From: Euglena gracilis
Taxonomy: Eukaryota
DNA: 64,000 bases
Assembly: GCA_039621445.1 (NCBI GenBank)
Contig: CP154954.1
Span: 36,503,703-36,567,702 of the forward strand
Reading direction: 5' to 3'
In this document: piece after piece, positions 311-56,334 of the stretch
How the letters are laid out: every line of letters begins with the position of its first letter
Numbering within the stretch: position 1 is the stretch's first letter
Notes under the pieces: model-generated
Told to the model about the DNA's origin: nothing
What the model saw: only the letters and a program-made list of their open reading frames with translations
Databases searched by the model: none
Translations under genes and position numbers: made by a program

Positions 311-3300
311 CGCCCTGCGCAGCGCCGCCGAGGCGGGGCAGGACGCGGTCGAGGTGGGCCTGCAGGGCGTCCGCCCGGTCCCGCTCCGCGTCCGCGGCGG
401 CCTCCCACGCCGTGCCGCGCTGCACCGCGTCCTGCAGCTGCCGCTCCAGGTCCGCGTGGCGCTCCCGCCGGGCGTCCAGCTCCACCCGCGTCTCCTCCAG
501 CTGCCGCTCCATTGCCGCCAGGGGCCCGCCCCGCCACCGGGGCACCAACCTCCCCCTCCCCCCGGCACCTTGGCCTGGGCCATGTTGGCCCCAACAGGCC
601 AGGGGGGCCAACTTTGGGGGAAGAGCACGTTGACCCCAGCAAGGGGGTAACAAGCTGGGGCCAACAAACAGCATTTCTTCGGACATGATGTGGCTTGGGA
701 AAGTACATATTGCAGTGGTCTCCCGGATCTGATTCCGCTTCGGTGGCCACGCAGTGACCCAAGCAAGCAAGGGCTGTCACTGTGGGGCTGTCAGTGTCAG
801 GATGGCAGCAGTGGCCTCCCACCCCAAACAGCACAGGATGGCCTTGGGTGGACCAGAGCGCAGCTTTACGGGTCCAACCATCAGCACCCCCTCCCCAACG
901 TCCGCAAATCCCCGGCAGGGGTGAGACCCTGGGCTCCACCTCACGGGCGTGGACCTTCACCCAGTCCACCTGCCCCTGGTGGTCCCACTGGCGCCGGAAG
1001 TCCTGCCGCTGCGTCTCCAGCACGCCGGCGAGGTGCGCCGCCGCCTGCGCCCGCGTGGTGGCGGCGCCGGGCGACGCACTGGGGTCGGCACAACCCCGTG
1101 GCTGGAGGCGATCATCGGGAGGGAGAAGCAAGCACGCACAAGGCATTAAGCGCGGTTCTCAATTATGGAAAAGGAAACAGAGGCTTAGACGGCCGGGAAT
1201 GCACTTTTCTTGTTGAGTCACAAAATTTAGGCAGTTTTAGTGAAAATGCGCATCCGCGCATCTTGGACGCGGAGTGCGCAGGTGCGCATTTTGCATGGTT
1301 TGATGCCTCTTCCAGACTGGGGGTAAACACCATAAAATTGAGCTGTTTGGATTTAACGCGACCCCAGGAACCACCCCCCAGTATTCTGCTTCAACCACGT
1401 ATCATGCTGTTTACAGCTGTTTCACGACGACTGTGGTACAGTGCGTGGATGGACACACACTCAGCACACTCCACACGGCATGCGGAACACAGACGACGCA
1501 GGACGCAGGGAAGCCTGGACCTGGGTGTGACACCCACCTTGTGTTCACCGATGTGTGCTGATGGCTTCTGGGGGCAGGGCCTGGTGAACCTGGGATGAGC
1601 ATGGGAGGGAACACCTGGCAGCCACAGAGACACAGCCCTCCCAAGGTCAAAACAATGGGGGTGTCACTGAGTATCAGGGCCGAAGAATGCGCACCTGCGC
1701 ATTTTTTGGAAACCCAAAAGAATGCGCAGGTGCGCATTTTTTGGAATGGACACAGGCTGCGGGAAGGGGGAATGCGCACACGCGCATTGATGTTGAAGGA
1801 CACACTGGGTATGGCCTGTTGTTTGCCTGCCTTGAATGCGAGCTGTGCACCGCTGTGATGTGGTTTCGGGCTTGCAGAACATGGGTGTGTGAGGGGCAAT
1901 TGAACCAAGAGAATAACCCTGGGCAATCATGTCGCTGTACCAGACCACACCCTGAAACACCACACCCGCAGCAGCATGGAAAACCCTGGGCTCGGCGACG
2001 GCAGGTGTCAAGGCACAAATTCATGTCCTTCAGTGACAGGGGAACTAACCCCCTGCAGTGCAAGTCACCGAACAAATCAGAATGCGCACCCGCGCATTCC
2101 ACTTCACCCACTGCAGTCCAGTGCCTAGCCCAGCTTACGCTGCTCTAATGAACGTGTGGCGCAAGTCACAACACACATGCAACCGTCCCCCACCTGGGGG
2201 AGGTATATAGGGAGGCTGCTGCCAGCGTTGTCTGACCCCACGCCCCAGAGCGTGCATGGCAGCACACAGCCAATGGTCGCACTGAACAACCTTACGTTGG
2301 GCTGCGGTGCACGGTGCAAGGACTGTGCCCCACAATTAGGGTCAACGCAGGGGGTTGTGTCTGGTTCCACACACAGTGCTCACGGGGTTGGCACCTCGAG
2401 AGCGAAACACACCTGTCACCACCTTCGGCATCATTGCCAAAAACGGTCTGTAAACACAGAATTAATTCACAATCCAAACCGACTCAAAGAAGCGAACACC
2501 ACTGGTTAGTCCTTGCCCCAAATTTTCTCCAGGCCCTTGAGATCGTGAGACAGACACAAGCACATCACAACAAAAACTTGCCGATAAACCCAGGAATTTT
2601 TTCCGTTCTGCTTTTTCTGTGTATTACACTGTGTTGTACCAAGGGAAAACGGATGAGAAAGGGACTTCAGTGCCCGAGGAAATTACTCAGTGACGGGCAC
2701 CCTGATTCCCAAATGTTGTCAGCAGTCCTTCATGACATGAGAGAAAAGCCGGTGAATGCGCACATGCGCAAAAAATCGTCCTGTGCCTTTCTTTGAATGA
2801 CAGCCACACCGTCGAATATTTGCGCTCCCAGGTGGGTATGCCACCACCCACGCCAACTCCCCCCGCCTGGCATAGGCTTGAAACCACACGGTTGAAGTGC
2901 AGACCTCCCTGTGAGGATCCAATGGTGTCCAAGGACGAGGCAGCCCTGGAGCGAAACATGGCAGAGGAGGACCACCACCTGTGGCCTTGTTGGCAACAAA
3001 CGTCACCCACCACATAGAACCCTTTTTTATCATGTACTCAGAGTCGACGCTCCAGCACTGCAAACTACACAACCCCTGGCGGCTGTGAAGACCAGGGAAA
3101 GCACATATGCACACACTTTCTCCACACACCACATCCGCAATGGCTGCAGTCAAACATGGCACATTGGGGTGAATGCGCACATGCACATTCCCTTCTTGTG
3201 TCTCCCCTTAAAGCACCCTGGTAGGAGGTTGCTGTACAAGGCCATGCCAAACAACTCAGCACACAAGGTGGAGGCACAGCCCAGGAGACGTTCACCCTAC

Positions 3301-53486: not shown

Positions 53487-56334
53487 GCGGGCGGCTGTAG
53501 CGGCCGCGGTGGCAGCGGGCGGCTGGTGCCGCCGGCGAGGGAGGGACAAGCGAGACCAGACCCAGACCAGACCCAGACCAAGACCCAGAACCGGTCCTCA
53601 ACTGTTCACACAGCTTCGCACACCGCACACGCCCATTTCGCCGTGTCTTCCATTTGTGTTTGTCTTTGACATGGCTGTGGAACATGGGGCTTTGGGGGGT
53701 TGTCAGATCTGTCACCTTTGTGTAAGAAATGGGATGATAACTCCACAAAGTGCTCAGTTTATGCCTCAGCTTTGGGATACAATACAGCTTTTCAATAATG
53801 TTCGATGAGGTATTTATGTTTGTTGGGTATTTCATGTTTGGGGTTATGCTGATACACTCCCCATTCAGATGGTTCAGTGTTGTTCGCACTCAAATGGACT
53901 CAGTTTGGGAGCCTGATCTGCATAAAATTTCTGCACTCCAGCTTGAGGAAGCGGAAAACCGCTTCTTCGGTTTTCTGTTTGTTTTCACAGGTTTTCCCTC
54001 CCTGCCCACTCCTTATGGCTGAGTACCTGAAGCGCGGACACATATAACACAGGTCTGTATTGTTCCTTGTCTTGGATTTGCATTCCATTTATGGTGTTTG
54101 TAAAATGTGGACCATGCCTGTTAAACTGATGACAATTGTTCACTGCTGATTACATTTGATTCATTATACCCTTTTGAAATGATGAACAATGGTATGTCTG
54201 GAATGATTGCTGACTGCCTGATTTTGAAGCGGAATGTCATTTTTACCGCTTCATGTTTTTCTCCTTTCTGTTTTTTCACCCTTTGCAGGGGGTTTCGAGT
54301 TCTTCCGGCAGCGGCGGCATCGAATATCAGGTGTGAATCTGCTCATTCTGTGTGGGTTTGTAATTTTTGTACGGTTTTTGTTCGTTTGCACATGATTTGA
54401 AAAAAAAACTGTAGTTTCGGGTCTGTTTTGGAGTTTATAGGACTCCGTTAGTGCAAGCCAAACGTCCACCAGAAATGGCCGAAATCGGGACCCCTTCCAG
54501 AAACCTCAAAAAAAATGGGCCTTTTTTGGAAGCGGGTTTCCGCTTCCTTTTCCGTTTCGGACGGGTCAGAAATTTTGGGCAATTTACGTCTCCTAAGCCA
54601 AACGCTTCGCCCCCCTCTCCTTATCCAAGGTTTACTTCCTTTCAGCCATTTTCTTAGGAAATTGATGGGTTGTGCACATCAATCGTGTCAGTCCTTTTTG
54701 ACTTGCTCTTTCCTCTTTGACCCAAACTTGGGGGCAAAAATGGAGCCACCATAAACCCACGCCCAAAGGTCTTGGGTAGCTGGCATATGTTCAATTAAAC
54801 GTCTTCAAAAGGCACAACAACAGCACATTGACTAATTTTCAGAGCCAATTCATCAGCCCCCCCCCCCCATTTATAACCCCCCTTGGGCCAGCCAACCAAA
54901 GCACTACTTAACACCTTGGGAAAGAAAAACGAAAACGGTCACAGAGAGTTTGTTTGCCCTCAAACCCCCCAAATGTGAAATCAAAATATTTTTCACAGTT
55001 TTAATGTCCCGGCCGTCATAAAATATTTTACCAAATGTGCCAGAATGGGTGATTTGGGGCATTCTGGGTCATTTTGGGGAGTTTCCAACAATTCCTTGAT
55101 TTACACCGTCCTACTTATAACCCCCTCCCCTTCGGCTGACCAACCAAAACACAAACCCCCCGAAATTTAAAAGTGTGGGGATTTAATAGTTTGAACAATG
55201 TCTGAATTCATGGAAAAGACGACTCTGGAAAGTCATTGCATTGGTGGTGTTGGGGATCCGACCGGGCCACTGTGCCAAAGCCACCAACCCCAAGTGTGCC
55301 GAGACACAGGGTCCGATTTAGCGTCTTCCTGTCTGTCTCGCAGTGGGCCTGAATACCGGTGGGTCGGGTATCGGTTACAGTCTGGTTGGTAGGTGGGGGG
55401 GGATGGTCACCCCCCAACATATCCAGGAGGTGGGGAAGATGGATCCCAGGTGTCGCTGAAGCCGAAGGGCCTCCCCCACCAAGGGGGGAGCAGCCAGCCA
55501 GCAGCCTGTTTCTAGTCCTGGACCTCCCTCCCCCATCGACAAATTTCATTTCCAGTCCAGCCCCCCTTTGTGCGGCTGGACAGTGCTTTAGATGGCTGGA
55601 CGGATTTATTTTTGCTCTGGAGGTGCAACGATGGGCCAACGCTGGGCAAAAATGGGTCGGAAATGGGTTGCCCAGCTCAAAGTTGGGGTCGTAAATCGAT
55701 TTTTTGCATAGTTGCCAAGCATTTTTTGCAGTTTCAATTTTTGCCATATGGTTCGACCCCCAGTCGCTTCCACTTCTAGCCACACCCCTACTGAGCTATT
55801 GGGGAGGGCAACCAAGGGCCTTGTGGGGAGGGGAGTTGGCACCGGGCCGGGGGGGGGGGGGTCGCGGGGAAACACCCCCTGAACAGAGTACACAGAGAGT
55901 GGTTGTACCTGGCAAAAGACCGATCATCCATGTGAAGATAATATGCTGTTTTTTGGGGGGGGACTGAGAATGATGGATTCTAATTTCAAAAGACGTTTTC
56001 TTGAACAAAAACGTACAGCAGAGCCAGGGATTGAACCCGGAGCTCCCAGTGGCTGCATGGGCCGCATGTTTTGCACATATTTCAACCATGACATCTCTGA
56101 ACTGGACAGGGGTAACTGATCTGGCTGCACATCACTGGTTGTGGGATCTGACCAACCTCCTGATGGGAGGGGAACACCACCTCTGATCCCCAGGGTATGC
56201 CACCCCTGGTGCTGGGAGGTGTCTGTACCCCCACCCCCCCCCTTTTTTAGAGGTTCTGAAAATAGCAATAAGCATGTTTTGGGATGTTCTGGTGTTTTCC
56301 ATACAAAAAAAACATGGTGAAACTTCAATAAATG

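Follow-up and report, generated by a model that had tools for sequence, protein, structure and literature searches.

A 64,000-nucleotide stretch of Euglena gracilis DNA (assembly GCA_039621445.1, contig CP154954.1, positions 36,503,703 to 36,567,702, forward strand), referred to below as the window, holds three transposable elements, E1, E2 and E3, that share their terminal sequence and the length of their target-site duplications (TSDs). Each element carries many copies of a 20-bp dyad, in which two 8-bp arms flank a 4-bp spacer, and the arms have a sequence of their own in each element. E2 also contains the decayed gene of a predicted DDE transposase and, downstream of it, a second putative gene (gene B). 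It is probable that the element's own protein docks at these dyads.

The elements were located by a script that pairs every CTTAG with every CTAAG across the 64-kb window. The pairing returned three elements with terminal inverted repeats (TIRs) far longer than 5 bp and with perfect 5-bp direct repeats at their flanks. This confirms the claim of an earlier note on this DNA that there are three elements with terminal CTTAG and the TSDs AGAGG, CCAAA and AGTTT; the TSD is 5 bp in all three. The elements and their parts are as follows.

1184..4541, plus strand: E1, 3358 bp, non-autonomous; perfect 26-bp TIR CTTAGACGGCCGGGAATGCACTTTTC
1179..1183 and 4542..4546: left and right TSD of E1, AGAGG
1..250, plus strand: E1b, truncated copy of the E1 family of which the window edge leaves only the right end; ends GCCGTCTAAG at 241-250
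39991..54597, plus strand: E2, 14607 bp, decayed autonomous-type; TIR CTTAGG[C/A]G[G/A]CGTAAATTGCCCA
39986..39990 and 54598..54602: left and right TSD of E2, CCAAA
42826..45492, plus strand: E3, 2667 bp, non-autonomous, nested in E2; TIR CTTAGGCG(A/G)CC(T)AACTCGCACTTA
42821..42825 and 45493..45497: left and right TSD of E3, AGTTT
44466-44647 and 44735-44916: internal inverted repeat of E3

According to the earlier note the TIRs differ beyond CTTAG. The shared tip is longer than that, with a 10-bp consensus, CTTAGRCGRC, common to the elements; the remaining TIR sequences of E1, E2 and E3 do differ. Exact CTTAGRCGRC occurs six times in the window, and every occurrence is an element end, including the E1b end at 241-250, where CTTAGACGGC stands exactly on the minus strand. 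The right end of E2 is a seventh end with one mismatch to the consensus, and the two TIRs of E2 agree at 20 of the first 22 positions. E1b is about 93% identical to positions 4292-4541 of E1 and holds one E1-type dyad, at 192. An ORF (open reading frame) family search of E1 gave no ORF matching any family. In addition to E3, E2 has taken up a foldback (40297-41132) and a further repeat (about 41270-41690).

RNA reads bear on the mobility of E3. Reads with loose ends diverge exactly at 42826 and 45492, the two E3 termini, which points to many E3-family copies in different flanks. In addition, two RNA reads from one run join E2-like flanks across a single AGTTT, and this resembles an empty site in a paralogue without E3. 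These empty-site-like reads are few, and are taken as supportive only. The view that E1, E2 and E3 are related cut-and-paste DNA transposons is supported. The hallmarks of the TIR order of class II are present, namely TIRs, TSDs and a transposase of RNase-H fold with a conserved acidic triad (its catalysis is predicted; see below).

The interior of the elements is marked by the dyads. The earlier note assigned to each element a GCG...CGC palindrome of 16-20 bp. The E1 palindrome has 8 matches at <=2 mismatches (expected 0), the E2 palindrome 10 (expected 0) and the E3 palindrome 18 at <=1 mismatch (expected 0.24); the last comprise 14 sites within E3, 3 cross-hits on E1-type sites and 1 site outside, at 57096. 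In an unbiased scan for any 8-N4-8 dyad, all three motifs have one common geometry. A GCG core is found at half-site positions 5-7 in all three dyad types, and the lengths are now re-read as 20 bp throughout. The arrays are as follows.

1244..4502: E1 dyad GAATGCGC-N4-GCGCATTC, 12 sites, at 1244, 1272, 1685, 1720, 1770, 2080, 2754, 3171, 3443, 3472, 4181 and 4483
40130..54547: E2 dyad TGAAGCGG-N4-CCGCTTCA, 18 sites at <=4 arm mismatches, starting at 40130, 41708, 42203, 45519, 45762, 46108, 46395, 46539, 48582, 49382, 50318, 50348, 51209, 52087, 52447, 53261, 53947 and 54528
42868..45453: E3 dyad ATTTGCGC-N4-GCGCAAAT, 16 sites at <=4 arm mismatches, starting at 42868, 43089, 43132, 43236, 43290, 43345, 43505, 44445, 44483, 44509, 44630, 44733, 44854, 44880, 44905 and 45434

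By eye, E2 has in addition a half-site near 51463 and a variant with a 13-bp spacer at 54225. The outermost dyads lie 42-139 bp from the element ends, and the others are scattered through the interior with a spacing of roughly 0.2-0.9 kb. Their density is highest in E1 and E3, which are non-coding riders, that is, non-autonomous.

Each dyad type keeps almost entirely to its own element. In a scan for 8-N4-8 sites with <=3 arm mismatches, 13 of 13 E1-type matches fall in E1 or E1b, 15 of 17 E2-type matches in E2 proper with none in the nested E3, and 12 of 12 E3-type matches in E3. Twenty dinucleotide shuffles of the same DNA gave a mean of 0.3-0.4 matches per dyad type, with a maximum of 3. 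The similarity between sites of one type is restricted to the arms, with an identity of about 0.8 (inflated by site selection), against 0.41-0.55 in the spacers and 0.30-0.34 in the 20-bp flanks (0.30 in E1). Similar flanks occur in 3 of 120 E3 pairs and in no E1 or E2 pair, and the three E3 pairs are mirror copies inside its internal inverted repeat. Nor did the dyads inspected by eye show flanking direct repeats that would mark them as micro-elements with TSDs of their own.

Dyads could nevertheless be non-functional by-products of slippage, gene conversion or the repair of nested excisions, or they could reflect a sequence habit of the host genome. Other palindromes and repeats abound in the window (C8G8 runs, and dyads in 43-bp and 205-bp tandem repeats), and some E3 dyads are copies by way of the inverted repeat just mentioned, which is what such an origin would lead one to expect. 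However, the dyads are confined to their own element even when it is nested, they lie close to both element ends, and their flanks are unrelated, so that segmental duplication does not explain the arrays. Moreover, the same geometry (8-N4-8 with a GCG core) recurs with different arms in six of six related elements from at least four sources, three of them described below. An origin as by-products is therefore very unlikely.

The protein that could mobilise the elements is encoded in E2. Two genes are recognised there.

46604..50594, plus strand: E2 transposase gene, decayed; exons at about 46604-46828, 48127-48474, 48701-49048 and 49047-50594, from tblastn of relatives
50938..53190, plus strand: second E2 gene (gene B), putative; exons at about 50938-51060, 51286-51426, 51621-51990, 52130-52375 and 52710-53190

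We infer a further short intron in the transposase gene, at about 49349-49462. The gene has a frameshift at about 49047, in-frame TAG codons at about 48945 and 49011, a TGA at about 49283 and a frameshift in the C-terminal tail. DDE-type residues are still legible in it, in the stretches W-L-D, LVDENIHY, GIWHAYKH and FVEEAGEAM. The ORF at 49452-50594 matches metagenomic proteins, and full-length relatives of the gene have 754-811 aa at 39-47% identity. The E2-type transposase of about 770 aa belongs to a family with 1291 representatives (50% identity clusters, E<=1e-3), 278 of them at E<=1e-30. Ten members that were looked up are known only as 'hypothetical protein', and neither NCBI nor UniRef has a record of them. 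No Pfam transposase family was hit by any of the 6 full-length proteins (E<=1) or of the 45 aligned members (E<=10), and neither NCBIfam nor a sequence search of the PDB gave a match.

In the alignment of the 45 family sequences (A2), D306, G339, W341 and H342 are invariant and W158, D160, N161, E511, E512 and E515 nearly so. An AlphaFold model of the transposase (predicted local distance difference test, pLDDT, 85) has an RNase-H core in which D160 ends beta1, D306 follows beta4 and E511-515 open a helix, and about 170 residues of helices are inserted between D306 and E511-515. In the VIA structure comparison 17 chains have Z>=5, every one a transposase or integrase. The neighbours are as follows.

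P element (6p5a): Z 9.6, 286 aa aligned, root-mean-square deviation 5.5, best structural neighbour
Hermes: Z 8.0, 284 aa
Tn5: Z 7.8
ISCth4: Z 7.3
Retroviral integrases: Z about 6
Transib (6pqn): Z 5.7
RAG1 (4wwx): Z 5.6

The first ten rows of Foldseek are Hermes chains (E 1.4e-3, probability 0.99). A viral structure library gave no match for the model; a Pandoravirus hAT protein came at rank 11 with a probability of 0.23. From the model we take the E2 protein to be an insertion-domain DDE transposase whose sequence shows no detectable affiliation. A distant kinship with the fungal DUF6589 (PF20231) is possible: in a language-model search, DUF6589 was carried by every one of the 30 closest Atlas clusters, with scores of 0.92-0.93 and 188-196 shared features, a result of low recognition value, and the Pfam model of DUF6589 matches 0 of 45 family members. 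The N-terminal 100 residues form a confident five-helix domain (pLDDT 87) with a conserved basic stretch.

Three further observations concern this gene and its relatives. The proteins P0006-P0011 end in a conserved acidic tail, ESLYEPP...GYVS, which follows the catalytic region in a segment of low pLDDT and could serve in docking. Repeats resembling (AAAAACTGCA)n occur in the long first intron of the E2 gene (46829-48126), which has the highest RNA depth of the stretch examined, probably from other copies of an inserted repeat. Some RNA reads connect 41573 with 48036, the two positions being matched on opposite strands.

Distant relatives show that the dyads are not peculiar to the window. A scan of metagenomes yielded only three short loci, L001, L002 and L003. 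Their proteins share 28-31% identity with the query, and in two of the loci the ORF is intact and free of introns (714 and 657 aa). Their recurrent dyads are as follows.

L001: CTGGGCGC-N4-GCGCCCAG, 4 sites, 4 of 4 outside the ORF
L001, second dyad: ACGGTGTT-N4-AACACC.., 5 sites, 4 of 5 outside the ORF
L002: GTCCGCGA-N4-TCGCGGAC, 4 sites, 3 of 4 outside the ORF
L003: TTAGGCGC-N4-GCGCCTAA, 4 sites (24-43, 441-460, 513-532 and 578-597), 4 of 4 outside the ORF
L003, second dyad: ACGGTGTT type, 3 sites, 1 of 3 outside the ORF

The shuffle means of these dyads are <=0.025, and recurrent dyad pairs were reproduced in 0, 2 and 0 of 300 shuffles for L001, L002 and L003, respectively. Private recurrent 8-N4-8 dyads are thus present in all six elements examined (E1, E2, E3, L001, L002 and L003). 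Since such distant relatives each carry their own, dyad arrays appear to mark the whole family. The half-site TTAGGCGC of L003 nearly equals the conserved tip of the window elements, CTTAGGCGGC. This hints, from the letters of the two motifs, that dyads and element tips may have a common origin, the dyads perhaps arising from paired tips. Relatives were found neither in IMG/VR nor in the prokaryote genomes of GTDB.

The position of the dyads within E2 is related to its gene structure. The exons of gene B are deduced solely from ORFs, GC content at third codon positions (GC3) and splice-like sites: its region consists of ORF pieces of high GC3 with low-GC gaps between them. Rightward of 48.5 kb, as far as the end of E2, all 10 scanned sites outside exons lie in low-GC noncoding stretches, and so do the half-site read by eye at about 51463 and the variant at 54225. 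These stretches are putatively introns or untranslated DNA. On this gene structure a full dyad is present in 6 of the 8-9 putative introns and a half-site in one more, the number of introns in gene B being itself a prediction. Two other dyads, at 50318 and 50348 (span 50318-50367), fall within a coding exon, in the part for the disordered tail at the C-terminus of the transposase. Translated in the frame of P0001, a paralogue with 86% identity, they give a twice-repeated peptide, DEAENRF or DEADTRF, which is missing from more distant relatives. With dyads in most putative introns of the element's genes, cis-elements and coding sequence share the same DNA.

Such a placement raises the question of whether the dyads work as nucleic acid rather than as protein sites, either as RNA stem-loops in introns and untranslated regions (in splicing, processing or as small RNA) or as DNA cruciforms in transposition. 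Each site could form an 8-bp stem with a 4-nt loop, the spacers vary freely, and most E2 sites are in putative introns or untranslated regions. The pattern of change in the arms speaks on both sides. Among 47 sites there are 65 one-sided arm changes that break the symmetry and 8 compensatory ones (3.9 expected by chance), and the changes gather in the outer three positions, the inner 5-6 positions being nearly fixed. Because most arm changes are one-sided and would disrupt pairing, half-sites bound by a protein are favoured over a pairing stem; the modest excess of compensatory changes, about twice chance, keeps the hairpin reading alive at a low probability. Furthermore, the density of dyads is no lower in E1 and E3, elements that contain neither genes nor introns, and the dyads are found in both spacer orientations. 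An 8-bp stem is also short for known processing enzymes. We regard a role of the dyads as hairpins or cruciforms as quite unlikely.

If a protein binds the dyads, gene B is one place to look for it. Its exons read LVLDVDLSRGQVRRPRQEHVNNL and WVMLSGQHRF, and the SGQHR stretch is what the earlier note took for part of a ParB-like protein. ParB binds the 16-bp parS site. By analogy, gene B could encode a protein of ParB/Srx fold that loads at the palindromes and spreads or bridges along the element, by which the element would be condensed or its ends paired, each subfamily having its own 'parS'. Both gene B stretches resemble the GxxR box of the ParB N-terminus, and the palindromes are spread over the whole element. 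For gene B an Atlas feature search listed clusters of DUF3723 (0.90) and DUF6551 (0.89) and one in which 19% of the members carry ParB_N (0.89); these are leads only, as holds for Atlas rows below 0.9. However, neither the single exons nor the two exons joined, with X in place of the stop between them, matched ParB or any other domain in Pfam (E<=10), NCBIfam, PHROGs or the sequences of the PDB, and a homologue search that included longer lengths retrieved none. In addition, L001-L003 carry dyads and yet show no gene B-like gene within their 2-4 kb of sequence, and the exon structure of gene B is predicted. The ParB-like protein of the earlier note is therefore left as a weak lead from a language model, and a ParB/parS-like module is unlikely.

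The explanation that we prefer, at slightly better than an even chance, is that the elements form a group mobilised by a DDE transposase, in which a dimeric, element-encoded protein binds at the dyads. According to this explanation, E1, E2 and E3 would be moved by the transposase of about 770 aa, with its RNase-H fold, into which a large and entirely helical segment is inserted after the second Asp and before the Glu. Its conserved catalytic core would recognise and cleave the conserved tip CTTAGRCGRC, and integration with staggered cuts 5 bp apart would produce the 5-bp TSD. The dyads would be multi-copy sites for the dimer, with half-sites about one helical turn apart as a result of 8-bp arms and a 4-bp spacer. 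The N-terminal helical domain of the transposase and the gene B product are the candidate binders. In an autonomous element the dyads would be tucked into introns and untranslated DNA; by recruiting the cognate protein they may help to pair the ends, and through them each subfamily with its non-autonomous riders may be recognised by its own transposase.

Several observations weigh against this explanation. Each element has its own palindrome, as the earlier note had claimed, but the E1 and E3 cores are one base apart (ATGCGC and TTGCGC) and cross-match; the 'barcodes' are thus not all strongly distinct, which weakens a strict discrimination between self and non-self. With only four protein-dyad pairs available, specificity and its co-variation with the protein are hypothetical. 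Neither candidate binder is recognisable as such: the N-terminal domain, when modelled separately, has a best structural match of just Z 4.0 and no DNA-binding fold among its matches, and gene B has no domain match in the libraries named above. The E2 copy is dead, because of the in-frame stops and frameshifts in its transposase gene, and RNA reads cover the E2 genes at about 0-2.5x and reveal no splice joints, so that the gene models stand as predictions. Finally, the doubled frequency of compensatory changes could reflect some pressure for symmetry.

A bolder version goes beyond the preferred explanation and is doubtful, though it deserves mention. It holds that the elements are an unclassified DDE superfamily whose private 20-bp 'operators' in every lineage, spread over the whole element and the introns of its genes, would be read by a fast-evolving dimeric protein (the N-terminal domain or a ParB/Srx-like accessory). 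Co-resident subfamilies and their riders might then be mutually insulated mobilisation groups, like the incompatibility groups of plasmids; the earlier note likewise supposed that the operator arrays may co-evolve with a DNA-binding protein.

The window has a eukaryotic look, with long microsatellites, tandem repeats and intron-like low-GC gaps in coding runs, and without prokaryotic gene density. A Pfam search of the E2 ORFs and of 22 other long ORFs in the window gave nothing usable. The remaining repeats are as follows.

40297-41132 (extending to about 40266-41160): foldback nested in E2, with 410-nt arms that are 99% complementary and 16 nt apart, flanked by C/G runs
41270-41690: G-run/'TTATATTTGGGGG' repeat nested in E2, a separate repeat family, with a like motif at about 23.7 kb (23700-23780)
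6035-6894: 205-bp tandem repeat, 4.2 copies at 97% identity, with a TCAAAAAA-TCGA-TTTTTTGG dyad in each unit
28325-28578 and 30371-30559: two arrays of 43-bp tandem repeats about 2 kb apart, around AGGAGGTT-CGAG-ACCCTCCT dyads
17334, 60233, 60514 and 60578: homopolymer palindromes of the C8G8 type (CCCCCCCCGGGGGGGG)

A fourth element family was considered from CTTAGACAAGGGG at 9959, 10423 and 23990 and was rejected, being part of another repeat and having no matching TSD. The word GGTGGTGCTTAGACAAGGGG at these three positions belongs to the repeat 'GGGTAAGAACC...GGTGGTGCTTA' and mimics a CTTAG terminus.

As judged by Pfam, NCBIfam, the PDB and the literature, rather than by Repbase or Dfam, the elements probably belong to a DDE superfamily that is unclassified, or at any rate without a name, and whose dyad arrays are specific to each lineage. 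Literature searches, which excluded Repbase Reports and Dfam, found no described family with these features, and PMC12130899 contains nothing that bears on one. If confirmed, the superfamily would add a branch to the insertion-domain DDE transposases, beside hAT, P and Transib, the ancestor of RAG1. The branch would be a large one, with none of its 1291 clusters named in the sources searched. Annotation of such elements in the genomes of protists could use the dyad arrays as a simple sequence signature. The arrays would also be a tractable system in which to study the diversification of DNA specificity within a transposase family and the means by which autonomous elements and riders stay matched.

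Among known systems, hAT elements are close in several respects. Like Hermes, the modelled transposase has a DDE RNase-H core broken by a large all-alpha insertion domain, as both Foldseek and VIA indicate, and the elements are bounded by TIRs and move by cut-and-paste; a shared fold is no proof of membership. hAT elements have ends of the YARNG type and a TSD that is typically 8 bp. The window elements end in CTTAG instead, and with 5 bp their TSD fits hAT5 only. Where hAT proteins have an N-terminal BED finger, the present family has an all-helical domain without a fold match, and a BED finger, the hAT C-terminal dimerisation domain (PF05699) or another hAT family of Pfam was detected in 0/6 proteins at E<=1 and in 0/45 at E<=10. 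The dyads differ as well, since 20-bp dyads occur throughout the element, in contrast to the short subterminal direct motifs of hAT. A passage of PMC12730594, which cites Repbase Reports 2007, gives the hAT5 subgroup 5-bp TSDs, and Hermes is described in PMC10368747 as binding subterminal repeats through its BED domains.

The P element is the best fold neighbour of the transposase model. P elements have a THAP DNA-binding domain, an 8-bp TSD and TIRs of their own. In contrast, the window elements have a 5-bp TSD, other TIRs and no detectable sequence similarity to P, and no THAP domain matched in the Pfam searches (0/6 at E<=1, 0/45 at E<=10). P elements also carry internal binding sites for their transposase, according to PMC7776569.

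Transib and RAG1 resemble the present elements in the 5-bp TSD and in a DDE core with an insertion domain. Their structural scores, Z 5.7 and 5.6, are lower than those of P and hAT and within the common range of the tool, and no RAG1/Transib family of Pfam matched among the 6 proteins (E<=1) or the 45 members (E<=10). The earlier note held that CTTAG ends together with 5-bp TSDs set the elements apart from Transib; they do, and they set them apart from typical hAT elements too. An H-x3-H motif (WHxYKH) follows the second Asp by about 35 aa here, whereas in RAG1 it stands just before the Glu. H342 of this motif is invariant and H346 is common without being universal. There is no Cys, and no C(2)C motif, among the invariant or near-invariant columns of A2. 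According to passages of PMC12730594, Transib has 5-bp TSDs and the CMCT clade has mostly 5'-CA..TG-3' termini with C(2)C and H(3-4)H motifs. WHxYKH superficially recalls the H(3-4)H motif as given there, but all seven ends in the window read CTTAG...CTAAG rather than CA..TG.

Multi-copy, lineage-specific palindromes and a reader protein encoded by the same element also recall ParB-parS and the iterons and incompatibility of plasmids. This is an analogy only: the host is a eukaryote, no ParB domain could be recognised in gene B, and nothing points to a role in partition or replication.

Elements of the En/Spm, Ac and Mutator groups commonly have short subterminal binding motifs that are specific to the family, are repeated near both ends, recruit element-encoded proteins and are kept by riders. 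Palindromic internal sites are known from ends of the piggyBac type, according to PMC11707139 on piggyBat. In contrast to all of these, the dyads described here extend over the whole element, up to 14.6 kb, and are also present in most putative introns and at two coding-exon sites. What is unusual is therefore the strict geometry of the dyads together with their spread over the entire element and its introns, and the way in which the arms are re-tuned in each lineage with the geometry kept, down to 28% protein identity.

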